Below are positions 2,297 through 49,424 of a DNA stretch of 49,424 nucleotides, in pieces. This stretch comes from Amoebophrya sp. A120. Its lineage: Eukaryota > Protista > Dinoflagellata. Location: the NCBI GenBank assembly GCA_905178155.1, contig CAJINV010000003.1, positions 8,108,245 to 8,157,668 of the forward strand, read 5' to 3'. The position numbers and the translations under genes are program-made. Each line of letters begins with the position of its first letter. Position 1 is the stretch's first letter. Under the pieces are notes generated by a model. That model saw only the letters and a list, made by a program, of their open reading frames with translations, did no database searches and was not told the origin of the DNA.

Positions 2297-2660
2297 AGGA
2301 CCCGGGTTTTTTCCTCCCTTCACACTACAAAATGAACCTAAAAAGTTTTTGTCTTCGTTGAAGAGCAAGTGACTAGAACAAAAATGAAACTCGTGGATTC
2401 CGTGAGCGGTTTGTTTTGAAAATGTGTCAATTCAAAATAAATGTATGCCCGGGCAGCAGCAGGTTAGCGAGCCTGTGAGTCTAGGCTGAGGATGGTCGGG
2501 CGGTATTTTATGCCCGTGTCCGCCCTCAGCCCTTTAGTGTACGGTAGCCAGGACTTGAGAAGATTAGTCAGGACAACCCACCGAATTTCGGGGTGGTATT
2601 TGTTCGCCTTCTCTTGTTCCCAGGGAGTAACGCCCCTGCCGTTGGTAGTAAGTCTCGTTT

Positions 2661-3055
2661 GTCCCGCTTTGCGGATGATCGTTAGTCCCGCTTTGCGGAT
2701 GATCGTTAGTCCCGCTTTGCGGATGATTGGCCCGCTTTGCGGATGATTGGCCCGCTTTGCGGATGATCGTTAGTCCCGCTTTGCGGATGATTGTTTGGCC
2801 CGCTTTGCGGATGATTTGGCTTCCGCTTGTCGGAAATTTTGGCTTCCGCTTGTCGGAAATTTTGGCTTTCCGCTTGTCGGAAAATTTGGCTTCCGCTTGT
2901 CGGAAATTTTGGCTTCCGCTTTTTCGGAGCCTCGAACTTTGGCTTCCGCTTGTCGGGAAATTTGGCTTCCGCCTTTCGCAAGTTCTGGCTTTCGCTTGTC
3001 CGAAGGTCTAGCTTGGTCCGCTGTGCGGGAATTTTGGACTCCGAAGGTCGGAAAC
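2661..3055. repeat. Hairpin minisatellites in unit 1: ~7x CCCGCTTTGCGGATGAT (20-24 nt), then TTGGCTTCCGCTTGTCGGAAAT-type (22-23 nt)
   Basis: Direct reading; cores CCGC-TTT-GCGG and TTCCG-CTTGT-CGGAA are inverted repeats. Confidence 0.9.
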
Positions 3056-3846
3056 GTCTCGTTGCCAGCTATCTATGCGGGATAGGTGTTGTCTGGCCGT
3101 TCTGTCCTCGGGACGAGGAACGGCGGTCGGTCTCGCTTTGCGATGGGAGGAGGGGTCGTTTGGCACTGGCGGTTCGAACCCGTTACCCTTGCGAACTTTC
3201 TCCCTGACTAGAGCGCTGGACTTCGTTGGATCTGCTTTGAGATAAATATCCGGACTTCCCCTCCCATCGCTATGCGAGACCGAGACTCGTCCGATTGGTT
3301 TGTAATGGGGCTATGCTAAGCCTGGGCGATCGCGGTTTTTCGTTCTATTTGGCGGACCCTTCTGATAGGCCCGCGTCTTAGTCTATCGGCTCACTTTTCA
3401 GCCCGTCGTCGTTCGTTGCTACGCCTTCATCGATGGGGCGCACCGGTTTCCCAAATTCATCTACTGGCCGCAAGCGCCACAGCGGGTTCTTTGGGATGCT
3501 TCGGCGTATCCGGCCTCCGCCGGTGGGTCAGGTGCTCCATCTCCCTGGGCGCCTCGACGACGTGGTGGGGGACTGCTCCCACCGAGCGGCCATCCATTGG
3601 GTGGCCCGTCTGCGGTAACTGCATAAAATGTATGCCCGGGCAGCAGCAGGCTAGCGAGCCTGTGAGTCTAGGCTGAGGATGGTCGGGCGGTATTTTATGC
3701 CCGTGTCCGCCCTCAGCCCTTTAGTGTACGGTAGCCAGGACTTGAGAAGATTAGTCAGGACAACCCACCGAATTTCGGGGTGGTATTTGTTCGCCTTCTC
3801 TTGTTCCCAGGGAGTAACGCCCCTGCCGTTGGTAGTAAGTCTCGTT

Positions 3847-4433
3847 TGGCCCGCTTTGCGGATGATCGTTAGTCCCGCTTTGCGGATGATCGTTAGTCCC
3901 GCTTTGCGGATGATCGTTAGTCCCGCTTTGCGGATGTTTGGCCCGCTTTGCGGATGATTGGCCCGCTTTGCGGATGATTGGCCCGCTTTGCGGATGATTG
4001 GCCCGCTTTGCGGATGATTGGCCCGCTTTGCGGATGATTGGCCCGCTTTGCGGATGATTGGCCCGCTTTGCGGATGATTGTTTGGCCCGCTTTGCGGATG
4101 ATTGGCCCGCTCTGCGGATGTTTTTTTTTGGCCCGCTTTGCGGATGATTTGGCTTCCGCTTGTCGGAAGTTTTGGCTTCCGCTTGTCGGAATTTTTGGCT
4201 TTCCGCTTGTCGGAAATTTTGGCTTCCGCTTGTCGGAAATTTTGGCTTTCCGCTTGTCGGAAAATTTGACGCCCGCTTGTCGGAAATTTTGGCTCCCGCT
4301 TATTCGGAAACTCGACCTTTGGCTTCCGCTTGTCGGGAAATTTGGCTTTCGCCTTTCGCAAGTTCTGGCTTTCGCTTGTCCGAAGGTCTAGCCTGGTGCG
4401 TTGTGCGGGAATTTTGGATTCCGTAGGTCGGAA
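3847..4433. repeat. Hairpin minisatellites in unit 2 (~14 copies of the first type, then the second type)
   Basis: Direct reading; copy-number expansion explains most of the longer period of unit 2. Confidence 0.9.
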
Positions 4434-5882
4434 GCGTCTCGTTGCCAGCTATTTATGCGGGATAGGTGGTGCTTGGTCGTTCTGTCCTCGGGACAAGGAA
4501 CGGCGGTCGGTCTCGCTTTGCGATGGGAGGAGGGGTCGTTTGGCACTGGCGGTTCGAACCCGTTACCCTTGCGAACTTTCTCCCTGACTAGAGCGCTGGA
4601 CTTCGTTGGACCTGTTTTGAGATAAATATCCGGACTTCATCTCCTCCCATCGCTATGCGAGACCGAGACTCCGAGTGGTTTGGAATGGGGCTATGTTAGG
4701 CCGCGATCGCGGTCTTTCGTGCTATGTGGCGGACCCTTCTGATAGGCCCGCGTCTTAGTCCATCGGCCCTCTTTACAGCCCGAGGGGCGCACCGGTTTCC
4801 CAAATTCATCTACTGGCCGCAAGCGCCACAGCGGGTTCTTTGGGATGCTTCGGCGTATCCGGCCTCCGCCGGTGGGTCAGGTGCTCCATCTCCCTGGGCG
4901 CCTCGACGACGTGGCGGGGGACTGCTCCCACCGAGCGGCCATCCAATGGGTGGCCCATCTGCGGTAACTGCATAAAATGTATGCCCGGGCAGCAGCAGGT
5001 TAGCGAGCCTGTGAGTCTAGGCTGAGGATGGTCGGGCGGTATTTTATGCCCGTGTCCGCCCTCAGCCCTTTAGTGTACGGTAGCCAGGACTTGAGAAGAT
5101 TAGTCAGGACAACCCACCGACTTTCGGGGTGGTATTTGTTTCGCCCGCCCTCCCTCCCAGTTGTTTCAAGGTGGTATGAGTTACTACGGATGGGCCGCTA
5201 AGACCTCGCGCCGCCCTTTTCTTACGGGGTGTGACAGAGGTCAATGTCTTCCATCGCGGGTCAGGTGCTCCATCTCCCTGGGCGCCTCGACGACGTGGCG
5301 GGGGACTGCTCCCACCGAGCGGCCATCCAATGGGTGTCCTCGACCCAGCAGCTAAAGCAGCATTACAGTGCGCGTTCGTTGATTTTTTACAAACGTTAAA
5401 CTAACAGTTTGTTACTCGCTCGGCTGAAGAAGCGAGCACGCAGGTGATTTCTACACACGATCTCTCGATGAAGTAAAGAGTATCGCTCGCACGACAGCAG
5501 CCTGGATGGATGTGAGAGTGCAGCTGCGATTTTGTTTCTGGCTTCAGCAGAAATGAAACAATGATCCTCTTGTTGATCGCGTACATGTAGCATTTGCTCT
5601 TTCAGTTCTTGGACAATATGTTTTTTCGGTTGCTTCATGGAGCGGCAGACCAACGACAAAGGTCATGGGATCTTGATTCCGAACCGCACCCAGAGATCCA
5701 TTTGCACTTCAAGGAACATTTTTCTGGCTGCTTTCTGGAGGCAGCGCGAAACGTTTGAATTTGGTCGATAAGCACGCGTAGAGACGGTTCCTCTCATCTT
5801 TAGTTGCTCGAGGTCTACCTAGTTTGCAATGGTTGTAGATCAACCTCGAGTGGTGCAACTTTGGGCATTTTTCTAAGAAAAG

Positions 5883-8269: not shown

Positions 8270-10048
8270 ATGGTCGCCTTTTGTCTGCGGTGTTGGCCCT
8301 TCCTTTTGCTACGACTCAACCAGGTGGTGCATGGTCGTGCCACGGATCCCTGCGGGGACTTGGAAGTGGACCCGACATCAGCAGGAGATAACGAAGTCAA
8401 TGGCATCCTGGAGAACACGAGCGGAACCGTTGTCGTCACTGGTGGGTCCGGGTTCATTGGGTCGAATCTGGTCGAGCTGCTGCTGAAAAGGACAAACTAT
8501 AAGATACGCGTACTGGATAACTTGGAAACGGGGAACATCCTGTACTTGGACTTGATCAGTCAGCCTGAACGGCTCCAGTTCCACTTCGGGGACATACTAG
8601 ACTTGCCGCTGCTGGAAAAGGTCTTCGGCGTAGCTGAAGACGACGCGGCGCGGCCAGGCGATGACGACGCCGCACGGCCGCGACCTCCGCCCGACATAGT
8701 CGGTGTTTTTCACTTGGCTGCGGCTTCGAAAGTTCTCCCGTCCTTGATCGACCCAAAGATGGCCACCTTCAACGTGAAAAATAACGCCCTCGGGACCGCG
8801 AACCTGCTGGAAGTGGTGAGAAAAGTAATTCTCAGACAGGAAGAGTGGAGAAAAAAGCACACCACAGATGAGAACCACCGGAGCAATCAAATGGATGATA
8901 ATCTTTACAGATTCAAGAAAATCGTGTACGCGGGGTCGTCCACTTACTACGGGCGGCAGTCAGCGGACGACATTGGTGCGTTTGAAGAAAATATGCTGTT
9001 CTCCGTGTCCAGCCCCTACGCGGCGTCCAAGTACATGGGTGAGTTGCAGATGAACACGTTTGACGAGATCCACCAAGTGCCCACCGTGAACCTGCGCTTT
9101 TTCATGGTGTACGGCCCGCGGAACCCGCGGAAGGGCGGCTACGCGGTGGTGACCGGGATTTTCGCGGAACTCAAGAAGGCAGGCACGCTATGGTGAGGAA
9201 AAACGTCCTCCCCTCCTCATATTTTCAAGAGGGAGGTTTTACTGTTGACACAAAAACAAATCAGCTCTACTGTCATCTTGCAAGAAAGCAACTCCAGAAA
9301 TCTCCGCCGCATTCTGGAGGCGATTTCTCATGCTGTGGAGCCTGTGTCAGCGTCGCAGGTGTCTGCCATTATTACACACCTCGACCCAAGCGCCCATAGA
9401 ACCTAGGCTGCGGATCTGGCTGCAATCGCTTACTGCAAGACAGAGCTGATTTGTGCACGCAAAGGCAGCAACAGATGAAATCTCGCGTTTGAATAAGGGC
9501 AGAGGGATTATTTCTAATTTTGATAAATGCCACTGACCATCGAGGGCGACGGAATGCAGTACCGCGACTTTGTGCACGTGGAGGACGTGGGCCGGGCCTG
9601 CCTCCTGGCGTTGGAGAACCCCAGCGTGCGCGGGACCTCCATAAACATCGGCAGTGGACGCACGCATACCATTCTGGACGCCGCCGAAATCGTGGCGCCC
9701 GGCGAAACCCGGAGGTTTTTGCCGGCCAGGCGCAACGACCTCAAGGGCACACTGGCAAACACGTGCAAGGCGAAAAAAGAACTGAAGTTCGCGTCGGCGA
9801 AGCAATTTGAGGCAGAAATGGACTTCCTGGTGCAGAAAATTCTCCGAAACGACAACGGTGACTTCGTCTACGAGAACATGGACCGAACCTTTCAGCGCTG
9901 GTTCGCCACCAAATCGCCAGCAGATGGTGCTCCGCCATGGTCCTCCTCGAGTTTAGAAGAAAAAAACGAACGCGTTCGCGAGCGGATTGTGAAACAGGGC
10001 CTCTTGAAAGCTGCTTTGGAGACGACTGCTGATGCCGCAGAACTGTGA
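8270..10048 (+). CDS. NAD-dependent nucleotide-sugar epimerase/dehydratase (extended SDR) with N-terminal hydrophobic leader
   Basis: TGGSGFIG, VFHLAA, YAASK, LRFFMVYGP, RDFVHVED motifs. Two exons joined by removing 342 nt around 9184-9530 (KKAG[T/M]PLTIEGDG). Confidence 0.9.
9189..9525. mobile_element. Degenerate introner element acting as non-canonical intron
   Basis: Starts TAT, ends ATA; flanks CACGC/AATGC; weak TIR resembling 42841 and 33621; element+5 nt = 342 restores frame; no usable AG before the exon (in-frame TAA at 9524). Confidence 0.6.
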
Positions 10049-11871: not shown

Positions 11872-14800
11872 ATGAGTTACGACCGAGGCTTCTACCTGCT
11901 GGGCGAGAAATGGTGGTGGCGCAACCCATGGACGGTGGGCCTGCAGTCCTTCCTCGGGGAGCAGCCGTGGCCAGCCACCCAGCTAAGCCTCTCCGACTTG
12001 CTGTGGTACGAGCTCTATTGGCTGGGCGTCACCTTCGCGCTTTTTGCGGTGCTCCTGCTCCTCATTCACTGGGCACTGTATGGCCACGGTATCACAGCCC
12101 GACCACTAGACGAGCAAAGTGCCGAACACAGCGGGCGCGAGACGTTTCTTTCGGACAACGAGCAGCAGATCCTACCAGCGTACCCAGTGGTGGAGCAGCA
12201 GAGTCCGCGCCCCAGTGGTGGAGAGGTAAAAAAGAACCGAAAAACCTCCGATGAAAGCGAAGACGGCGACGTACAAACGCCGACCAGTTCGGAAGACGGC
12301 GAGGACGGTAAGAACACTACAAAGACCACTTCTAGAAATAATGCACGAGGTGGCCCCGCCCGGACCAGCTCCTGTTTGCGGACGCTAGGGCAGTGTGTGT
12401 TTTTGCGCCCGAGTATCAAATGTAAAAATGTCTGGGTCTGGAAGCGTGTAAACTTGTGATGCAGATTTTCCATGACCAATGAGGTCTGGAATGCGGGACT
12501 TAGCATGACAGACTCTGCGAGGTCTCCGCCATGCCTATCCTGCATGAGAAACTCTCTCCTAACTTGGTCGAAAGTGGACAGCTTTTGGCACTCATGCAAT
12601 ACAGATTTTTGTATGCTTTAGATTTACCATGACAAGTTACCACCTTCCAGACCCAGACATATTTGCAATCCATACCGAGTGTGCACGAGCGAAACTGGGC
12701 CACCGGCACGCTCCTCGTCGTCACGGTCGGGTTGCTGTTCGCGAATCTGTGTGTGTATTTCATGCTGTCGGAACAGAGCGCCCTCTCCCGGGAGACGTTC
12801 TTAGACATGATGCACAAACTGGAAGATCTGGGCCGCGCCACCTGGCCGCGGGTGAGCAAAGACGACTCCCCGGCGACCTGGTTTGACCTCGCCGAACAGA
12901 AACTGACGGACATGGGCGATGTCGATGTGGCCAAAGTGAATGTGGCCAGTCGCTACGTGGCGGCTCAACTGCGGTCCCTGCCGCCACAGAAGGTGGACGT
13001 GAGTGCCATTCCCATTTTCCAGCCCAACGACGGCGAGACGGAGCCGCTCACGCTGGTGCGGGACTTTGCGTGGGTGTCTTCGCAAACGGTGCGCGGGGTG
13101 TTCGTTCGGCAAAACGACGGCACCGAGGGTTTGGTTTCGCACTCCTCAATTCTGCAGCAAATGCTCAAGGAGTGGATTCAGCGCCGGATGGACGGTGCCC
13201 GCGTACTCGAGATGTATCTGAGCAGCAACTGGTGCGACTCCGACTGGGCACCGCGCCGGCAGGGGCCTTGCGGAGGCGGGTTACCGCCGCCGCCGCCCGC
13301 ACAAGAAACGGCGGCTCCGAAGACGGCACCACGAGCACCGGAAGCCCAGCCGAAAATTCCGACCATCGACGAGATTCGAGCGAAGCGTACCGGCGTGGTG
13401 GGGGTAGAGCTCCCCGACGAGCGGGGCCCCCGCGAGAATCTGCACTACCACCAGAGTACCCCACAGGAAAAAGCAGGCCGGGCATGCTTGTTTATGCAAA
13501 AGTATCTACATGATCACAGAGAAATCCGCAATAGGCGACACTATTTGAGCATGCTGTTTGCGATATGCGATGCAGATTTTTCGACGTATTTGTTTTTGTA
13601 TGCTACTAAAGAATCCGTCCTGCCTGCTTTTTTCTGTCGTATACAGACCACGTCGAAGACGATTTCAGGTGCGTCAAACCAGTGGCTGGACGAGTCGGCC
13701 TGGGTCACGGCGGCCGGGAAAGGACAGACCGACGTGGTGACCGCCGACGACCCGCAGCTTCCGGCCCGGCTGCGACAACAGTGGCTCGGGTACTTCGTCG
13801 CGGTGCAGAACGGGAACTTTATGTCCAACAACCCGTTGCAAAACGCCCCCGCGACGGCAATACGGGTGGACTTGTTTTCGTACCGCGGCATGAGCCCCGA
13901 GAACCTGTACGAGCTCTGCCTGGATGCCTTCGAGGATGCGGTGCGAGCCGCGCTCATCAGCATCCGTGCTGTGCCCGGGTCCCAACCCTGGAGCTTGACG
14001 GACTCGGACTTCCTGGACAAGGTGCACGACAGCAACGCCTGGACATTTGTGTGGCTCAAAGAGAGAGGCGAATACGTCAAGTGCGTCATAAAAGCGGACA
14101 AAGACGACCCGTTCCAGGTCCCGGCGCTTCCCCCCAAGAACGGGGAGATGGCTTCGTTCCTGCAAAGGCATTCCAATGCCAATTCTGGTACAACTCCACC
14201 GGCGGACGATTTTGAGTTTCACACTACTCCAGATGCACCAGAGGCTGAGACTGCTACTGAACTGAACCCCGATGGTGCCGGCGCCCAGTCGAGAAGAAGA
14301 AGAAAGAACGAGGCGGGCTTTTTGTCTCCCGATATACCTGAAATGGTGGACGACGACGTGGCGAACGCGGGAGTGACGGAGGAGGGCGCGGTCGACGTAA
14401 ACGTCGCTGGATCAACACCTAGTGCCTCAGCAGCTGAGCAGCAGATGAGAAATAATAGGATCACCTCCTCCACCTCCAGTGTCCTCGCTGCCGGATTCCG
14501 GTCTCGCGCAACCGCAGCGCAGGCAAAGGTCGGTAGGGAGTCCCTCCTGCAGCTGCCGGACGATGAAGAGGACCCGGAATTTGACGGGTCGCTGAACTCC
14601 TCCGAACCGCCGCCGGGCTGCGTCGCGTGGTGGCTGAACGTGGACCCGAAGCCGGTGGCGCTGCAGCTGCTCGCGCAGTCCCGGTTTTGCCAGGAGGACC
14701 CGGACAACGTGGTGATTCCTGTCGACCACCGCGTGGTGGTTTCGCGGTTCGAGCTCGACCTGTACATGCTGCGGCAGAAGTACCGCCGCTTTTTTCTGGG

Positions 14801-27289: not shown

Positions 27290-30200
27290 GCGCACCACCG
27301 CCAGGAGAGGATGAGCGGCGCTCCAGGAGCGGTCGGCGCGGTGGAAGAGAGCGAGACCGCGACCGAAACCGCGAAAGAGATCGCGAAAGAACCGCTGGTG
27401 GGCGAGACCTCGAGCGCGGGCGACACCAGTCGACGAACAATGACCGGGCTGGTACCGAATAGTTTTACATTTTTTTTCTTGCGCAAATGAATAAATAAAA
27501 AAAAAAAAAACCTCCCGGTCTCGTCTGTTTCGGTATCGGTGGGCAAAAAGGAATGCACACTACTTCCTTGTCTTTTAGTTTTTTTCCTTGAAATTGCAAG
27601 ACGGTCTCTTTCGAAATCAGGTAACGAGGAATACGACCGCGAGCGGCGCAACGAAAAGTCTCGCCGCGATCGTGAAGCGAATCGTCGGCGTTCGCGCGAC
27701 CGGGAGCGCGACCGTGGCGGAAGAGGTGACCGCGACGAACTCACGGGAGCGCAAGACCACAGTCGAACCGGCAGTGTTGCACCTACGGGCGGGAGTGCCT
27801 CTGGAGCGAAGACGGACCGTGGCCAGAACAAGTACCAGAATCAGCGGGGCAGCACGCGGGATTTCGATCGACAGGAGCGCGGCACGGGAAAAACGACTCT
27901 ATCGGAGTACAGTAGAAAAGATAACACCTCTAAAAACTCTGCGTCCTCTAATGACTACTACCAAGCTGCACCCACCAGTAGTGGAAGTAGTGGGCACCAG
28001 CAGCACCCGGCCGCTGGTGCGAGCGATTCTTCTCTGGGAGGTGCGGACAAGAGCAAGCGCGGAAAAAGCGAAAAGCAGCCCGTGGTACCTGCTTCGAAAA
28101 AAGAAAACGAAGCCGAACGAGGACGGCTGGCCAAGCTGCGGGACGACGCGAAAAATAAACAGGGTGACAAAGCGAAAGCCGGCAGCGGGGAGGCTCCGAC
28201 GTCATCGGCTATGTTGACGGCTTCTAAGAAGAACAAAGGTGAGGACAAAAAATACGCGCACAAGGACACAGGCTCCACTAGGGCAGAGAAAGAGCAAAAT
28301 AAACCGAAGGATGCCGATAAATTGTCGTCAAAAGCAGGAACGTCGAAAGATAAGGCTGAGAAGCTCACTGCTCGGGAACAGGAGCCGGAAAACAAGGTGT
28401 CTAGCAAGGACAAGGATAGGAAGAGAGCCAACACCGGTACCAAAGCCGCGACGCCGTCCTCGAAAAAAGAGAAAGAGAAGGAGCAGGCGAAGGTTGTCGT
28501 GAAGGATGGAAAAAAAGATGATCCCATGGATGTTGATCACGATGACGAACTTGAGTTTCAAGACACCTCCCGGCGCGATAAGAGGAATAAGCGAGACAGG
28601 GAGAAGAAGGAGAAGCGGCGGGGGTCCGACAAGTCCGCCAAGAAAAAGGACATATCAACTGTAAAAATGTCTGGGTCTGGAAGGTTGCAACTTCTCATGC
28701 TAAATCCGTATCATGCAAAGATCTGTGTTGCATGATTGCCAAAAGCTGTCCACTTTCGACCAAGTTGGGAGGGAGTTTCTCATGCAGGATAGGCATGAAA
28801 GAGACCTGGCAGACTCTGTCATGCTAGGTCCCGCATTCCAGACCTCAAGGGCCATGGAAAACCTGCGTGACAAGTTCACACTCTTCCAGACCCAGACACT
28901 TTTGCATTTCATAGGACACGAACGACGACAAAAACCGCGCCGTCTCCCCGGATCGCGAGGAGCGCAAAGCGCGCAAAGATGCTGCGAAGAAGAATGATGA
29001 CGACGGGACGGCGAATAATACTAAATCTGCTCGGAGTGTCGAGGACAAAACTACTGCGCGTCTCGAGAGGGAGAAGGAAAGGAAGAACCAAGATAGAGCT
29101 GCAAAGAGGGACCAAGAGAAAGAAACGGCGTCGGCGAAAAATAAACGAGCAGCTTCGCCTCCCCAAGGGCGGAGCGGCTCATCCGCAAAGACCCGTCTCG
29201 CACCGCCTGCCGTCCCGGCGATGCCTTCATCATCCAGCAGCGCTGCGGGAAGCTCCACCGGCGTCGTTCTCACCAAGCGGAGCGATGTGGTGCTCGAGAA
29301 GAGACGGAGCGCTGGCCGGGATCGACGGCGAGAGCGTCGAAGATCCAGCCCTGACCAGCGAAAAAAATCCGGACGCGAGCCTCCGCGGGCGGACGGAAGT
29401 TCGGCCGCCGGAGTGGCACCGCCGAAACTACTGACAGCTTCTGGTGCGCCCACAGGTGTCCCGGGGTCGGGTACTACGGACAACGCATCTTCTGGAGCCG
29501 GGACTGCGCAGGTGAAAAAGGCTGTCCTTTCTCCGCGCGACCCGGACGGAGTGCTCGCGAATGGCAGTAACATCAACAAGAGTGGTGCACCACTGGAACA
29601 GGCAAATAAACCCAAGGTGATTTTGACTCCGAATCCTGCCGCGGTTTCGTCCCGGGAGAACACGTCAATCAATAAAACAAGGCGTGATCACCAGGAACAA
29701 GAAGAAGAGGAGGACGAACTTGTCGACGTGTCGCTGTCTAAGATAAAACCGCGGAAAAAAAAGCGCGACCGAGAAGATCGGGACCGCGAACGGGAGCGCG
29801 CGACCGGGGGAGTGCGAGCAGAAGGGAAGGAGCGGGACCACAATAATGTCCGGGACCGAGGAGTCCGAGGGGACCAACACCGGCGGGAAAGTAACCGAAC
29901 GGGCCCAGGTGACCGGCCGCGCCGAGTTGTGACAGCTCCCGACATTCAAGTGTCCTCCGGAAGTCGAGCGGCATCCGCAGCCGAGGACATGGTAGACCAC
30001 GAGGCGAAAAAGAAGAGAACCGAGAAAAAGCATACCGCACAAGACAAAGGACCACGTGTTGGCACAACATCAGCAACGGGTGCAAATAAAGTCGCGCCAG
30101 TGTTGAGTAATGGCTCGATCGCAGCAAATGACGCGCCCATTCAGGCCTTGAGTAAGAAAATGGAGAATAAGCAAAGTGCTAAAAATCATGCGCCGGCTGG

Positions 30201-40629: not shown

Positions 40630-43600
40630 ATGCGGCCGCAATCTGGATCAGCTTCCTCGGATTCTTGTCCGTGTATCGACATCGAGCCGGGGCCACCTGT
40701 AGAGGGCATGAATTCAGTAGGGGCAACAAGAGAAGCCACCGAACCTTCGCCGAAACCCGGGGAAACCGGTCCTGTCGTTGTTCGGAAAGATGACTTCTTG
40801 CCTGGAAACCGCAAAGACGGCATCGGAAGAAATGCTGTGCCCACTGCCAAATGGAGGGAAGATAAAGATGAAGCTCTCGGCGATTATTCCGGGGAACGAA
40901 ATGTCCTTGATGTCGAGGACTCTTCGCCCCCTACCACGGAGCCGTTTCTCAAGGCGGTTCTCCGGAGTTACGGTTGCTTTGTCGGGAGACACCCCAATGT
41001 GGTGTTTTTTCTTGTGCTGCTTTTCTACGTGCAGATGCTGAAGTATGCAATTTCCAGCGCTGCGGGGGCTGGCGACACCCAGAACATAGGACCTGCACAT
41101 CGGCACGATGCTGGAGCTATCAAAGGCAAATATGTCTGGGTCTGGAAGATAATTGCCAGGCTTGTCATGCATATTTTGCATGGCCCATGATGCCTGTAAT
41201 GTATAACCTGGCGCCACAGATTTTGAGAGGGCTTTCTGATGCGTATTGTTCCGCATGAGAAATACTGCCCTCTCCGCGTAGCACAAACTGGACTTCTCCT
41301 TTATTATTGCTGGTTATGCAATACAGAGTTTTTTGGAAAAATCCAAAGACCGCATCACATATTTGCATTTCATAGGAGCCCGAAAGTCTCAGCAGGGTCC
41401 GGCTCTTTTTGAGCCGGGAAGAGGTCGGGTGGATTATTGGGAAGGTATGATATTATATCGCAAGAAAAAACTGTTTCACTGTAGACTTGTGATGCATAAA
41501 CTGGAACACAGAACTATTTGTCTTGCTACACCTACAAGACCGTGACTCTTTCAGGGTGTTTTCCCTTTGGAAGGGAGCATGGCAAATTTTCTGTGTCATG
41601 TGTAAGAAACTTGTGATGCAGATCTTGCAAAACCATCACAGTGAAACAGTTTTGTCGTGGGATATAATATTAATTTCCGGCCGCTGTAAAAGTGAAAGTA
41701 AAATGTTGATATTGCTTCCTGATGGAAGATGTTGTTTTACGGAACAGGTATTCCGATCCTGAGAAGGCGCTCTTTCGGAACATTTTCTCTCCACCAAATA
41801 AGATGCGTTTTGTCATGCGAAGATGGCATACTAAAAATGAAATTCCAGGGCGGCATATCACAGGAAGAAAGTGTTGCAGTTACACATTTGTTGGAGTTTT
41901 AGTTACACATTTGTTGCAGTTAGTCCGGGGGCCAGACACGATGGATTCATAAGTGGATAAACTATATCCTGTGCAAAAGTATCGCACTCGTATAAATGCA
42001 TTACAAATTTCCCCAGCATGAGAAATAAAATTTGTCATGCGGATTTACCGTAAGAAAAGAATTTGTAATGCATGATGCTGAAGTATGCAATTTCCAGCGC
42101 TGCGGGGGCTGGCGACACCCAGAACCTGAACAGCAGAAAAGGGGCTTTCGCACTATTTGAGGTTCCGAAATTTGTCATGCTAACAGTGCTTACGAACAAT
42201 GTGTGAATTAGGTATTTTGCATTACACATGAGGAGGAGGGGGAGTTGTGCACTTCCATACTGCTTTATCGCGTACACGTATCCGTACACGTATTCTTCCC
42301 TCCGCACCCTACTCCGCATATCAGATGCAAATATGTCTGGGTCTGGAAGGTTGCAAGTTGTCATGCAGATTTTCCATGACCCATGAGGTCTGGAATGCCG
42401 GACCTAGCACGACAAACTCTGCGAGGTCTCTGTCATGCCTATCCTGCATGAGAAGTTACTGCCTTCCGGACCCAGACATATTTGCAGTGCATACCGCACG
42501 ATCCAAACCGACGAGCAGTACGCGGAGAAAGCGAAATTGATGCGGAGACGACCGTATCCTGTGCAAAAGTATCGTACCCGTGGTAGTAATTGCGTTTATG
42601 CATTGCAAATCTCCATCTGAAGGTAAAACAGCATGACAAACTCCATATGTCATGCTGAGCTAATTTGTATTGCAATTGCTACTACTACGATACTTTTGCA
42701 GTTCATAGACCGCTGTGCCAAACGCTCGGCCGGGCGGAGGTGGATCTGTTGTCCATCAGTAATTGGACCGTCCCGAGAGAGGACAAACGGTACGTCGTCA
42801 TTTCCTCCCGCGTCCACCCGGGTGAGGCAAACGCGTCGTGTATCCTGTGTAAAAACGTCCACACTTCTGCATAGTTGTCATGCAAATCCGCCATGACAGA
42901 AAGATTTGTGATGCCCATCTCCATGACAGGTATTTCCAATCGTCTTTTGACATTTGTAAGGCTGTGAACAGGATGAGAAAGCGGCTTTCTCATGCGGCTT
43001 CCCTTGCTACTCAGCACTACACTGCAGGTGAAAACTTGTTATGCGCAACTCCTAAAACTTGGAGATTTGTGTTGCAGATTTACCAACTTGACTATGAAGT
43101 GGGGACGTTTTTTGTCAGGATATCGTGGTTGATGCACGGGTTTCTGAACTTCATCCTCTCCAACACCCCAGAAGCGCAGGTGCTGCGGTCGCACTTCATC
43201 TTCAAAATCGTGCCGATGCTGAACCCCGATGGGGTGATTTCCGGGAACTACCGGTGCAGTCTCGCGGGTGTGGATTTGAATAGGCAGTGGCGGTTCCCGG
43301 ACCCGGTTTTGGTATGAAAGTGCACAACTCCCTCTGCCCCTCATTTGTCATGCAAAATTCCAAATCCACCCTGCGCCTGTTAGCACGGGTGCAGATGCTG
43401 AAGTATGCAATTTCCAGCGCTGCGGGGGCAGGCGACACCCAAAGGGACACGTTCGAGGCACGTTTCACCCTGTGCGGCGGCACAACGTTGTAAAAACGTT
43501 CTGTGAAGGAAGTACTCAGAGATCTCCACAACGACCGAAAACGACCGAAAACGACGATCCTGTAGTTCTACTTGATGCAGGCAAGAACACTGTTGGTACA

Positions 43601-46600
43601 ACTAGTAAAAGCGACGATCAGGAGGGACATGATCAAGATAAGGATGCAACTAGTTCATCAACTACATCTTCCCCACTGGATAAACCCAAACGCACCTCGG
43701 TCGAACTGCGGGACGAAATCAAGGCTTTGCTGTCTACGTACAACAAACAGGCCGAGGAGCGCAGCCGAAACTTGTTGAACCCACCGATGCAACCCACTAG
43801 CACCAGTCCCGTTCCTGCTGTGCTCGCGGGAGATATTAGCAAGACAGACACCAATACTGCTTCGCGGAAGAAATCGGTCACGTTTTCCTCGGCAGTGGTG
43901 GAGCACGAGGACGATGATACTGTTGCTGCATCTTCCTCTCCCAAAGCGGATAAAAGTGGCGTAGTATCGGAGGTGTCGAAAAAACCTCTAGTTTCCTCAC
44001 CGAGCGCAACTGCAGTTCAACTACCGAAGGCTACTAATACAACTTCCTCCTCCGCAACAACTGCAACCGACTTCCTGAATGGGGGCATGAAAGTGTCCGC
44101 CGCAGTGTTGAACTCTCATGGGTCCGGGAATTTCGTTCCGGTTGTGCGGAAGAACGACCGGAATGGCCGGGAAGAGCTGTTTTTTGAACCCGTCCAGGGG
44201 AATAACATGTTCGCCGCGACGTCCTCTAGTGCGGGTCAGGGAGGGCATCACAGCTTGATTTATCAAATGCAAAATGTCTGGGTCTGCAACTTTGCTCGAC
44301 TTGTCATGCCTGTTTTCCATGACCCATATGATCTGTAATGGAGGACCTAGCATGACAGATTCCGACCGTGCGATCACTATCATGCCTATCCTGCATGAGA
44401 AACTGCCTCTCAACTTTTCAATTTCCAGCGCTGCGGGGGCTGGCGACACCCAAAATCTTAACAGAGATTTGCACAGGGACAACATGATGAATCACCTGCC
44501 CACCGAGCTTCAGTGGTCTGCGAGTGGTGGAAAACTGGAGAAGGGCATTCGGCTTTATCGCGAGCTCATCATGAACGAGACCATAACCGAGCGATCGCGG
44601 CCCGGAATCGCTGCAGGGAAAAACACCCCCGCGACTCCTCCAAAGAAAAAGGTTTGAGTCAGTTTGTTTACCGCGTTTCGAATTGAGACCGGCACGCGCT
44701 GAGGCCCAGACTTTTTGATACGACGGCACGCTGACGGCTACTATTTTTGCGTCGAGCATACCGTCGGGGAAAACAGGGGGCCCCCGCCTCCCGCCCTTTC
44801 GCCCGCTGGGTATCCTGCCCGCAGGGGGCCCCCCGCCGCCCGGCTCCCACCCGCTGGGTATCCCGCCTACAGGGGGCCCCTCGCCCTCCTCTTTCACAAC
44901 CCACGCGCAGGGGACCCCCGCCTCCTTGCCCGCACCCCCTCCCGCCCTTTCGCCCGCACCCCCACCTTTTTCTTCGCGGCGCAAGAAATCACACAGTGGT
45001 CCGACCGCCGCGCAAATCGCTCGCCGAACAACCAGAAGTCCGTCGCCGAGGGTAACGCCGTGGCTGCTTTCGTACTGACTGCGATGGTCCTCATAGGTAC
45101 CATTGCGCGTGTGCCCTCACGTATTGCTGCCGCACCGGACACCGAGAAAGCGGCATGGACACTTGCCTGGCCAATCCTGGCGGAGATTGCCGGGTCGGTG
45201 CTCCGGACCTCACTCGCAACGAAACTCAGGCAGGGTCAGGCGCGCGCCGACAGACTTTGCAGGCACGGGGAGGAAGTGGATTCATCCCCGCTTGCTCGCA
45301 ACGATATTCAAATCGCATTGGTGCTTGGCGCGTTCAATTTTTGGCGGGCCCTCGTCGGTCGGTTTCTCGTTGCCAGCTTTGATTCTACGGGCATCGCACT
45401 AACAACGCTGACGGTGCAAGCATTCGAGGAAGTACTCTTCAGGCAGACGTTCGATTGGCGGGACCAAATGTATTCTCTCCAGGGGTTTTCCTTTTGCTAA
45501 ATCATTGAGTACCAGCTCCCTTCTTGGCAAGCATACTTTACGCATTGACTTGACGTTGACTTTCGGTCTTCTTCTCAAGAGATGAAGTCCGTACAACTTA
45601 CTTTTTATCAATCGATGTTCTGTTTTAGTTGGCGGTAGATATGATCATCAAAGTCGAAAAGATTTTTGAATATGAAAAATGTGTAGGTACGCCAAGCATG
45701 TGTGCCGGTGGACTGAGGAGCGCATCGAAAAGGAGTTCAACTCGAAATCGCCTCGGCATTTTCAGGCGCAGGTCCTCCTATCAGAGATGCAGACTGAGTA
45801 CGCGGCGATCGCGCTTGCCCCTCTTTCTATTCTGATCTGGTACGACCTTCGATGGATTTGGAATCTTGGTTACCAATATTTTTTGTGGCGCGTCTCGGAC
45901 GGCTGACCGCAAGACACCTCAACCGGCCTGAGTTTAGCGCTATGGCCGGCGTTGGTGGCCTTCGCGGTTAGGCGCCAGAATTAGAGCGCATCACGCTGGG
46001 CTGTGTTTTACCCTTACGCTTGGTTTCAGTGTGTTTTGCCCCAGTGCCTCTCTGACATTCTCCGCCCGGCCCTCTTTCTGGCGGCGGCGCTTTCGTTCTG
46101 CTTGGAGCCTCACGCGCCGTTTGAGTGCGGCGAGCCCCGATGCGTTGACGGCCAGCCAAGGGTCTTGGATTTGCATCCGAGCAACCATGAGGGCAAGTGC
46201 CGGCCTCCCGGGAAATAGCCTCTGGGGGTCGTCCTTGGGGGTTCAAGAATGGGGTATCCGACATTTTGCTCCGATGCATTTTTCTCCATCGTGATTCGCT
46301 TCAGAAAAAAACGCATCGGAGCAGTTTTTGTCGAGGTTCTTGTTAGATGTATTGGACAACATTGGATCTCGTTGAATCTGCTCTGATGGAGACAGGGATG
46401 CGTTTTTCGGATCGAAGCCCTGGGCCTTGAGTGCCTTTGGACCGCTAACGAACCTGAAGAGGTCCATCAGGGCAACTCACGCGAGCCTGGGGGCATTGCT
46501 CTCAGCTTTGGTGACGAAATCGAGGAAAACAATTCCCAGATCCCTGATCCGGAAAACGCATCCGTGTCTGCATCCGAGCAAAATGCATCACCAGCAAACT

Positions 46601-47528
46601 TGCTCCGCTACGGTTTTCTTTTACGGAGGCACGGGTGTGCTTTTCGGATCAGAGATTCGAGCAAGCAAAGTAGCGAACTTGCTCTAGTGCCTTCTTTACT
46701 GCTTCGCTCTTTGTAAGACGGCTTGGTCTCTCTCCAAATGCATTAGAGCAACCTCGTGTCTGATTACAGTGCGCGCGCCAATGTCTTCAGTGCGGGTAGG
46801 TTTTTCGCACTGTGTGGACCTGATGCGGAGAGGCGGGGAATTGCATCGGAGCAAACTTCCAAAAACCTGCTGCAACAACCCCTTCCGAGGCCTTTTTCGT
46901 GCTTATCAGCCCAAGCAGGTCAAATTGTCTTCGAGCTCCTACATTTTGCGCAGATGCTGGCGCGGATGAAAATTTTACACCTTTAAGGTACGACCTACGT
47001 TGGATTTGGAATCTTGGTTACCAATACAAACAAGAAGTCGACTTCATTCACCTGCTTGCGCCACTCTTTCTCGGTCTGCTGTATGAAGTCGTTGTGGACA
47101 CGCTCTGTTTGAGTGTGGAGCAGAACATGTACTGTGTTCCGGTCGATAAACAGTGGGAAAACTGGCCAAAAGGCTGGAACTGGAAATGGAACAATGCGAC
47201 CCCGAAGTGCGAACTCCGTGGACTTGCCGGGGAGGAGGCGAGCCAGAAAAAGACGGAGTTGGACGAAGAAAATAAAGGGTCTATTGAAGATATTCCGGCG
47301 TCTGCAGAGGAAACGAGCCGGCGCTTGCTCTTTTTCTACGTCGCCATTCTGATTGGCTGCTACTTTCATTTTATGTACGCCTTTGACATGACTGCTTCCA
47401 TCTACTTTGCGTGCGGAGGATGGGCTGAGGTTCGCACGGATTTTTTCTACTACAACGTTTGCGCATCCACTCCGGATTGTATTGATCTCAGAGACGGCTA
47501 CAAAGTGCTCAACGAGTATTGCGAATAG
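40630..47528 (+). CDS. Uncharacterised multi-pass membrane protein interrupted by large direct-repeat-flanked inserts (could be a pseudogene)
   Basis: Segments 40630-41085, ~44457-44650, ~44960-45469, 45687-45839, 46988-47528 are frame-compatible and contain several hydrophobic helices; GT-AG introns 45470-45686 and 45840-46987; junction at 44650-44960 unresolved. Confidence 0.6.
41118..41374 (+). mobile_element. Introner element, family A-related (257 bp)
   Basis: Left TIR TATCAAAGGCAAATATGTCTGGGTCTGGAAG; right end ACATATTTGCATTTCATA; TSD GGAGC. Confidence 0.88.
41456..41664. mobile_element. Introner element (209 bp) nested inside an intron
   Basis: TIR TATCGCAAGAAAAAACTGTTTCACTGT / ACAGTGAAACAGTTTTGTCGTGGGATA; flanks TATTA/TAATA. 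Confidence 0.8.
41965..42073. mobile_element. Truncated introner (same TIR family as 42555), cut by repeat copy 2
   Basis: TATCCTGTGCAAAAGTATCG start; inner inverted repeat ATGCATTACAAAT/ATTTGTAATGCAT present but outer right TIR missing. Confidence 0.75.
42319..42493 (+). mobile_element. Introner family A, internally deleted copy (175 bp)
   Basis: Family A TIRs; TSD CCGCA; removal restores the CCP frame. Confidence 0.92.
42555..42707. mobile_element. Introner element family E (153 bp)
   Basis: TIR TATCCTGTGCAAAAGTATCGTA / TACGATACTTTTGCAGTTCATA; TSD GACCG; removal restores the CCP frame. Confidence 0.9.
42841..43122. mobile_element. Introner element, family D-related (282 bp)
   Basis: TIR TATCCTGTGTAAAAACGTCCACACTTC / GAAGTGGGGACGTTTTTTGTCAGGATA; TSD TCGTG splits the ASW of HPGEANASW. 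Confidence 0.9.
43313..43388. mobile_element. Truncated introner left end (family F); a right end of the same family lies at ~42235-42259
   Basis: TATGAAAGTGCACAACTCC is the near reverse complement of GGAGTTGTGCACTTCCATA. Confidence 0.75.
43444..44260 (+). pseudogene. Captured Ser/Thr-rich coding fragment of an unidentified gene
   Basis: Frame of ORF 43472 is open from the repeat junction to an introner start at 44261; no domain recognised. Confidence 0.55.
44261..44418 (+). mobile_element. Truncated family A introner, cut by repeat copy 4
   Basis: TATCAAATGCAAAATGTCTGGGTCTG plus family A interior (ATGCCTATCCTGCATGAGAAACT); no right TIR. Confidence 0.85.
44775..44965. repeat. Degenerate C-rich short repeats (CAGGGGGCCCC, CCCGCTGGGTATCC, CCCGCCCTTTCGCCCGC)
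   Basis: Direct reading; probably intronic. Confidence 0.6.
45839..47026. mobile_element. ~1.1 kb insertion flanked by a 40-nt duplication of host coding sequence; forms GT-AG intron 45840-46987
   Basis: 45839-45878 vs 46987-47026, 38/40 identical, both encoding [13 protein letters not shown]. Confidence 0.8.
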
Positions 47529-48419
47529 TCACGACAGATGGGTAGCGGTTGTATTCGAGATCCTCCGCACATTTCGTTACAGTGTTTCACATCCCGTCCC
47601 CCTCAGCTTATTCATTGAAAATAAAAAATTTCTATTTCGATTTCGAGGAAGCCTGGCTGTCTGCACTAGCTCTTGCCTATAATAACAGAAAAAGAAAAAC
47701 CTTCACCTTGTTGCTCTTTGAGTTGCAAACGCAATGTAATTGATGCCGTAAGCAAGGCAGACAACAGATAATTGCGTGGCCATTCTGATTTTGTTTGCCT
47801 CATCTTTTTATTCTAGGAGGTAAGCCTGCCATGCCGCATACTTTTTTTTTTGCTTCTACGAATTACTCCACCACCAGTGTGTTACATAAGAAATAACCGC
47901 ATTAGTTTCACCATGTCACTCTCATTGTTATGCTTTGTTTCATTTTAATGAATTAGATCAACATGGATACTAGAAGACCTTCTAGGAAGGTGATCGACTT
48001 TGGTTTCGGTTTCCGATCCGAATTTTCTGCATGATGCCATCGCGGTTCGCCGTCTGTAGGATAGAAAAAACTACTCCGAAGTGTCGGAGCCACAAGCAAT
48101 TTGGCAACAGAACAGCACGGGACGGTAAGCGCAGTTGTTGCGCAGACCATATTGACCTTCATTTGTTCATCCTTGGCTTCACAGTGAACAATTGTGTACT
48201 GTAGGGCAGTGTTGATGTCTACTTCGACTTTGAACAACGATGAAGCGCTTGTTGTTCTTATCAGAATGAAAAGCACCCCCCCCCCCTCAAACAAATGACA
48301 ACCAAAGTAAATGCAAAGCAAATGCAAAGCAAAAAACGTCAAATGTTTCTTTTGGAAACATTTGAAAAAGACAAAACAAAAAAAATGCGTGCCGTGCAAG
48401 TGTGTTTTGCGTAAAATGC

Positions 48420-49192
48420 ATTTGCCCGGGCGGCAGATACAGAGTGGGAATGCGAAAAGTTGCATTTTATGGGATGCGCCATAGCATGTGGAATGGCTCA
48501 CGGGCGTGGCCCGCGAGGACCGCCGTAGCAGGCTGATTCGGTTTTGTGACAAAAAAGAGCAGTTTTCTGATGCGGCGCCGTGCCGTCGTGATTCGCGTCC
48601 AGTGGTGCTGCCCGGGTGGCAGATACAGACCGGGGACCTCGGAAAAAGCAAAAAGCTGCGCTTTAATGGGATGCGCCATAGCATGCGGAATGGCTCACGG
48701 GCGTGGCCCGCGAGGACCGCCGTAGCAGGCGGATTCGGCTTTATGACAAAAGAGAACAGTTTTCTGATGCGGCGCCGTGCCGTCGTGATTCGCGTCCAGC
48801 GGTTCTGCCCGGGTGGCAGATACGGACCGGGGACCTCGAAAGAACTAAAAAGCTGCGTTTTTTTGGGGTTGCGCCGTAGCATGCGGAATGGCGCACGGGC
48901 GTGGCCCGCGAGGACCGCCGCAGCAGGCGGGTTCAGTTTTGTTACAAAAAAAGGCAATTTTCTGACGCGGCGCCGTGCCATCGTGATTGGCGTCTAGCGG
49001 TTCGGTCCGGGCGGTAGATACAGACCGGGGGCCTCGAAAGAAGCAAAAAGCTGCGTTTTTATGGGATGCGCCATAGCATGCGGAATGGCTCACGGGCGTG
49101 GCCCGCGAGGACCGCTGTAGCAGGCGGATCCGGTTTTATGACAAAGAAGAGCAGTTTTCTGTTGCGGCGCCGTGCCGTCGAGATTCGCGCCC
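48420..49192. repeat. ~197-bp tandem satellite, ~4 diverged copies
   Basis: CACGGGCGTGGCCCGCGAGGACCGC and GCGGCGCCGTGCC recur with ~196-199 nt spacing. Confidence 0.92.
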
Positions 49193-49203
49193 AGCGGAAT
49201 CTT

Positions 49204-49424
49204 GCACAGAACCGGGCCAGCGCCCAACAGACAAGAGAGCGGCGGCCACGTCGGCCCCAATGGCCAGCGTCTCGGCTTGCACAAAGGGCCCGCGGCAGGC
49301 CAACAGCCTCGCGGAAGTGCTAACATGCAAGATGTGGGCACTTTCCTGGCAAAAGATGCCCAAATGTTGCACAGAACCTGGCCGGCGCCAAACAGACAAG
49401 AGAGCGGCGGCCGCGTCGGCCCCA
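49204..49424. repeat. Second tandem repeat, ~165-nt period, running off the window edge
   Basis: GCACAGAACC...ACAGACAAGAGAGCGGCGGCC.CGTCGGCCCCA at ~49204 and ~49369. Confidence 0.8.

Follow-up and report, generated by a model that had tools for sequence, protein, structure and literature searches.

The window is a stretch of 49,424 nucleotides from Amoebophrya sp. A120 (assembly GCA_905178155.1, contig CAJINV010000003.1, positions 8,108,245 to 8,157,668 of the forward strand). In agreement with this, a 279-aa exon of a neighbouring gene (8348-9184) has 100% identity to a protein of Amoebophrya sp. A120, the next match reaching 49%. Its + strand bears a host gene that is split by two GT-AG introns. 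The first supported exon of this gene (44943-45469), placed by a contig and by the reading frame, contains the first in-frame ATG at 45086 and has an uncertain 5' end. It is followed by a 217-nt intron (45470-45686), an exon (45687-45839), a 1148-nt intron (45840-46987) and the last coding exon (46988-47528), which belongs to a predicted membrane protein. The spliced frame is open to a TAG at 47526-47528. The last exon has no relatives in the protein size ranges 98-314 and 315-2000 aa and no related locus in metagenome contigs, and gave neither a Pfam family nor a usable protein-atlas match. An open reading frame that carries an array of repeated coding segments and inserts lies upstream and ends at a TGA (44655-44657).

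The 1148-nt intron is composed of an insert of 1108 nt (45879-46986) and one copy of a 40-nt coding duplication. The left copy of the duplication occupies 45839-45878; its G|GTAC supplies the donor and its remainder is intronic. The right copy occupies 46987-47026; its first G finishes the AG acceptor and the remainder is exonic. The two copies are identical at 38 of 40 positions and lie 1148 nt apart, whereas chance would give about 7e-12 such repeats in the window. They differ in CTT/CTA (Leu) and CGA/CGT (Arg), left versus right, both synonymous in the host frame. The sequence comparison thus bears out the duplication with two synonymous mismatches around a 1108-nt insert that the initial annotation had described. 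Apart from the array upstream and one repeat pair that was already known, a census of spaced short repeats in the window, satellite regions excepted, returned this pair alone. The 40-mer is absent from the repeat family of the insert, and at 85% likeness the flanking exons are matched by no second contig.

The insert and one 40-nt exon copy are removed exactly as a standard intron. Among the 55 registers of length 1148 that were tried, only 45840-46987 starts with GT and ends with AG (GTACGA..TTTAAG). A joint from 45838 to 46987 is present in X3 at a depth of 15.8; it skips 1148 letters, can slide over 10 letters and has GT..AG at cut +1. A single X4 contig consists of 44943-45469, 45687-45838 and 46987-47700, with no other letters. 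X3 and X4 are RNA-like runs, the RNA label being a guess, and represent two samples of one study. The precise splicing and the RNA junction 45839/46988 foreseen in the initial annotation are therefore present in the contigs of both runs, which also skip another GT-AG intron, at 45470-45686. The same joint was looked for in the X1 and X7 contigs and is absent there. The comparison covered six of 11 listed runs (X1, X3, X4, X7, X9 and X10); the raw RNA runs X9 and X10 placed nothing on this gene and do not bear on its splicing. The spliced X3 and X4 contigs bear the letters of the right copy, which places the main junction within the repeat's initial 10 nt, at the GT-AG position; contigs lose rare forms, so this describes the main splice form. 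X1 is a DNA-like run, possibly the source of the assembly itself. One X1 contig (44787-45908, depth 43.7) bridges the left junction, and another (46957-47700, depth 41.7) bridges the right one.

The donor is formed by the duplicated G-GT, and the acceptor by the last A of the element with the G of the right copy. About 2% of exon positions read GGT, and the right flank of another family copy, seen in X3, begins with C. The GT-AG ends at this site are therefore a selected accident rather than a property of the family.

The insert is a left-truncated member of a low-copy, non-coding repeat family; its being repeated agrees with the initial annotation. X1 contig depth is 126-230 inside the insert and 42-44 in its flanks, which corresponds to a family of about four to five copies. 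At exactly 46986, three contigs of X1 and one of X3 pass out of the insert into other sequence. The three X1 exits agree with each other at 0.57, and three unrelated flanks would give 0.5625. Position 46986 is consequently the family end, common to about four copies, and it is intact here. On the left side there is a single entering X1 contig; it joins at 45874 and reaches 116 letters further. Solved from the bin 45844-45894, the depth of this contig is 113.6, a value that predicts 192.39 for the next bin, where 192.4 is observed; a single-copy contig would predict 173. The extension of at least 116 nt is therefore common to two or three copies, and the copy in the host gene is cut short on the left. 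Here the contig ends are taken as branch points of 31-letter words, which is our inference. Of the ends shared across the family that were anticipated for the insert, the right one is thus confirmed and the left one is missing, so that the element is incomplete in this copy. The loose end of the entering contig is set before 45874 and not before 45879, which defines a junction zone on the + strand (45874-45878); up to five host letters there align also to the longer family copies, likely as microhomology. Compared with the family majority, the insert shows 7 differing places in 1108 and a 17-nt gap. There are also diverged relatives, which connect at 46024 and 46082 and continue leftward for at least 255 letters.

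The element is rich in hairpins. The interior (46200-46700, + strand) folds strongly (z -6.12, 0 of 100 shuffles) and includes hairpins at 46267-46323 and 46379-46580 (inverted repeats I4 and I11). A 14-nt stretch at 46870-46883, read on the - strand, matches the left extension that this copy lacks; one in 20000 shuffles gave a match of at least 14 nt. The match is exact. Its distance to the right end is 104-117 nt, and its distance to the start of the left-extension contig is 94-107 nt, within the last 30 letters of the extension, the only ones readable. This would point to imperfectly inverted ends and to an element of about 1.25 kb when complete, its left terminus lying beyond the readable letters. 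No opposite-strand joint between the two family ends is listed among the contig joints, and the insert copy itself has no inverted repeats at both ends.

The sequence at the right end reads CACCTTTAA, with neither a 3' poly(A) nor a simple-repeat tail at 46986, and the run of T at 45879 is internal in the longer family copies. None of the 12 insert frames reaches the cut-off for a Pfam domain, reverse transcriptase (RT) and endonuclease included, and no tRNA or tRNA-like head was detected in the insert. An Rfam scan returned six weak hairpin-type matches, all far under the gathering score. Exact end motifs of 22-23 nt have no matches in viral and metagenome contigs. Helitron and LTR end motifs are not present in the insert, and a bacterial promoter and terminator scan, not meaningful in this host, stayed at chance level. 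Elements of the piggyBac and Kolobok type target TTAA; the host site has no TTAA, and this assignment was rejected. A family with two fixed ends, in which the T-run would be a minus-strand poly(A) tail, was rejected on the depth arithmetic. The window self-search found no similarity between the insert and a local TA..TA family with terminal inverted repeats (TIRs). All four complete copies of that family have perfect 5-bp target-site duplications (TSDs), and the contrast drawn earlier between these and the 40-nt duplication holds.

The upstream array carries similar duplications. Three insertions in succession fit its four repeat copies; the duplications measure about 52, 60-65 and 35 nt, and the differences between the copies are synonymous in four of four cases. 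The array inserts consist of cut-up genomic DNA that contains introns and broken elements, and include an exon of an M14 peptidase (carboxypeptidase). A DNA-level process therefore makes duplications of 35-65 nt within 5 kb. The third insert is a piece of a highly expressed gene and differs from its source by 32 letters. Indels keep the frame in all five listed clusters, and the 28 substitutions that were classified comprise 11 synonymous and 17 non-synonymous changes with no stop. Such differences are as would be expected for the DNA of a working, diverged allele or paralogue. A Patched-like look of the array reading frame found no Pfam support and was dropped.

The initial annotation had placed the array in the same gene as the insert. 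The array frame stops at 44655-44657, the stretch 44419-44716 is contained unspliced in contigs of X3 and X4, and 44943 is the first position of the spliced X4 contig. X3 depth is 15.8 on the host gene versus 3.8-5.1 on the array frame, and the nearest GT and AG are, by eye, out of phase by one. A non-canonical joining intron aside, the array probably belongs to a different gene. The insertion hotspot that had been attributed to the host gene would therefore be a property of the region.

The two differences between the 40-nt copies are improbable at their pattern and number, because the divergence of the element is only 0.6%: two differences, both synonymous, in 40 nt have p of about 0.003 at that value, which may understate the age if family copies were homogenised. 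At 5% divergence the same test gives p = 0.055. When the 40-nt pair and the array are pooled, six of six differences are synonymous (0.0017 with one coding copy); this synonymous-only statistic is post hoc and includes just two differences at the 40-nt pair. The simplest joint account would be that each copy of a duplication had evolved in a coding role, and in an allele of its own, by the time the two were joined.

We consider it about an even chance that the intron consists of a left-truncated, inverted-end (MITE- or introner-like) DNA element together with a 40-nt exon copy, and that the duplication was produced by break repair, probably with a diverged allele as template, and not by an element enzyme. 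The inverted-end nature of the element is itself probable. This reading is favoured because it joins the synonymous-only differences at low element divergence, the pattern of the array and the left truncation. At the G-GT site the element would have become attached by its right end. On the left, the broken end of the chromosome would have gained 40 nt from an uninterrupted allele, by extension or replacement, and would have been sealed to the element some 120 nt within it, where a few bases are shared. The G|GT of the left copy and the AG made by the last A of the element and the G of the right copy would let the gene survive. Two orders of events are conceivable. The element may have been captured at the break in a single step, or a normal insertion with a short duplication may have come first and been remodelled later, with the same splice sites. 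In the latter order the splice sites would be pre-existing and the intron would have arisen by the ordinary introner route. Several findings count against break repair. The contigs that cover the gene include no empty allele and no second strain. The evidence for inverted ends is one 14-nt match in 30 letters of a hairpin-rich element. The non-synonymous class holds 17 of the 28 listed substitutions of the third array insert. Moreover, a precise end, a truncated end and a long duplication also fit a 5'-truncated retro-insertion.

That retro-insertion is of the non-LTR kind that the initial annotation brought up, and we regard it as a real rival, though the less likely one. A non-autonomous element on the + strand would have been inserted by target priming, with its fixed 3' end at 46986, a truncated 5' end with microhomology, a 40-nt duplication from widely staggered nicks and the two differences acquired later. 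Read on the + strand, the insert does have a fixed right and a truncated left end, and the longer leftward reach of its diverged relatives agrees with this. Truncation at the 5' end is typical of non-LTR elements in the accessible text of PMC2861651, exceptionally long TSDs are named for R9 elements in the title of a paper, and introners of the non-LTR class are tabulated for A120 in the available part of PMC12130899. However, the end at 46986 has no tail, the T-run at 45879 is internal in longer copies, and the RT, endonuclease and tRNA-like head are missing from the insert. The duplication copies would start identical; the synonymous pattern is left unexplained; the A120 families have TSDs of 2-11 nt (36 of 58 rows with a length); and the array inserts, with introns and the same geometry, cannot come from mRNA. 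A family of DNA elements that always makes long duplications, the dedicated second route of intron gain proposed at the outset, is improbable: the other copies of the family are readable over 30 letters of unpaired flank, and a long duplication is demonstrated at this copy alone. The right junction is a precise family end, as such a family would have, and a simple later deletion by microhomology, which may also have shortened the duplication, would account for the truncation. None of the 58 tabulated A120 introner families is of this kind, and neither the synonymous-only differences nor the non-element inserts of the array are explained.

Coding constraint on both copies, imposed by a splice junction that slides within the repeat through non-canonical Amoebophrya splicing, would suit the synonymous-only differences of the 40-nt pair and the array, and more than 60% of introns are non-canonical in the genus according to the accessible text of PMC7789003. 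It is very improbable, since the spliced contigs bear the letters of the right copy and constraint lowers the expected number of differences instead of raising it. An assembly join, or the tandem paralogue fragments named beforehand as the refuting case, is hardly credible even though the copies differ like coding paralogues. Each junction lies in a single contig at single-copy depth, one spliced contig gives one open frame and the exons have no second contig, all of which argues for one interrupted exon and largely refutes this alternative.

Comparison with known systems sets the intron beside several routes. Amoebophrya introners are likewise repeated non-coding elements that are spliced out and take their donor from the duplicated target. 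Farhat et al. 2021 (PMC7789003) describe, in the text available, inverted repeats of 8-20 nt and direct repeats of 3-5 nt, and Dataset S2 of Gozashti et al. 2025 (PMC12130899) has 58 A120 rows, with TSDs of 2-11 nt in the 36 that give a length; here the duplication is 40 nt with two differences, and the left end is missing. Families fam103 and fam135 of that dataset, compared by description only, measure about 1.1-1.2 kb and have 16-nt inverted ends. In the accessible text on Daphnia pulex neointrons from break repair (PMC4202315), the exon end has a direct repeat at the new intron's opposite end and insertion recurs at the same place; those repeats are 4-12 bp long, the breaks are staggered and the filler is mostly of unknown source, whereas the present intron has a 40-nt repeat, a repeat-family filler and allele-like copies. 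Dinoflagellate introner-like elements (Roy et al., bioRxiv 10.1101/2020.10.14.339549, available part) have their 5' splice site where the duplication starts and their 3' splice site at the element end, and one class ends in TAAG or TAGG; unlike here, their TSDs are 3-8 nt and fixed for each class. Gap filling and template switching in Pack-TIRs (PMC8277862, in the part available) also copy nearby sequence with short microhomology by transposition-independent repair; the captured DNA stays inside intact ends and makes no intron, while here one end is lost and exon is copied. Non-LTR elements with long TSDs, as far as the R9 title and the available text of PMC2861651 go, share one fixed end, one truncated end and a long duplication, but have what the insert lacks, namely a tail, an RT and an endonuclease, and no partner was found. 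Intron gain derived from repair and from transposons is described in the accessible parts of a Drosophila study (PMC3296678) and of a review (PMC11282704). No duplication of tens of bases at an Amoebophrya intron appears in the literature searched, outside which lie the supplementary files of Farhat et al. and those of the bioRxiv papers, which may bear on the point.

A broader process is advanced tentatively. Recurrent repair or out-of-register recombination in Amoebophrya may join two diverged alleles over about 1 kb of captured DNA, such as cut elements and chopped genes, and leave duplications of 35-65 nt whose copies come from different alleles; where a G-GT site is available, a precise intron would result. 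Sex between strains has been proposed for this organism in the available text of bioRxiv 10.1101/2025.04.10.648098, which describes sexual spores, likely heterothallic, with the zygote not observed.

The intron is best regarded as a variant of repair- or transposon-derived gain, and not as a demonstrated new element class. It is a new intron with RNA support in which the source, the junctions and the duplicated exon are all readable, and its duplication is several-fold longer than the tabulated TSDs of A120 introners or the repair repeats of Daphnia. Should it be an ordinary introner that was remodelled in a single instance, it is a curiosity. If different alleles supplied the two copies, intron gain would be tied to recombination between strains in a marine parasite whose sexual cycle has not been directly observed. 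If the allele-mosaic process is true, introns of this type would preserve, in the DNA, a trace of sex or hybridisation between strains.

Three inserts, each about 1 kb long, form an array at 41029-44464, with nested coding duplications of 35-65 nt. The inserts of this array consist of chopped host DNA. Within insert 2, 42693-43309 is part of a gene for an M14 zinc carboxypeptidase and includes that gene's own introns, the family being assigned from a Pfam match for 43078-43308. Insert 3 (43487-44293) retains an open frame of 269 aa and is about 95% like a gene located elsewhere, highly expressed in runs presumed to be RNA, with indels that keep the frame. Between the array repeat copies, all four differences (4/4) are synonymous. 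The end of insert 3 is formed by a truncated copy (44258-44416) of a TA..TA inverted-repeat element that is common in the window and whose four complete copies (12404-12685, 28646-28921, 41112-41380 and 42314-42499) are each flanked by a perfect 5-bp target duplication.

Tandem repeats are found at both window ends. A perfect 13-nt tandem repeat (1-82), different from the published telomere repeat of Amoebophrya sp. A120, opens the window; at the other end (48391-49424), a 197-nt satellite gives way to a 165-nt repeat. At 2439-5339, satellites of 20-24 nt are contained in a larger tandem unit, which measures about 1.2-1.4 kb.

Downstream of the array, 44943-47528 is a three-exon gene for a predicted membrane protein, expressed in the same presumed RNA runs. 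No counterpart was found in the protein collection searched at 98-2000 aa, and a search for its protein family returned none. Between the array open frame and this gene lies a second repeated element, which is GC-rich (~44683-44975). Its depth in the DNA-like run X1 is 172, coming from other contigs, and the element could be a non-canonical intron.
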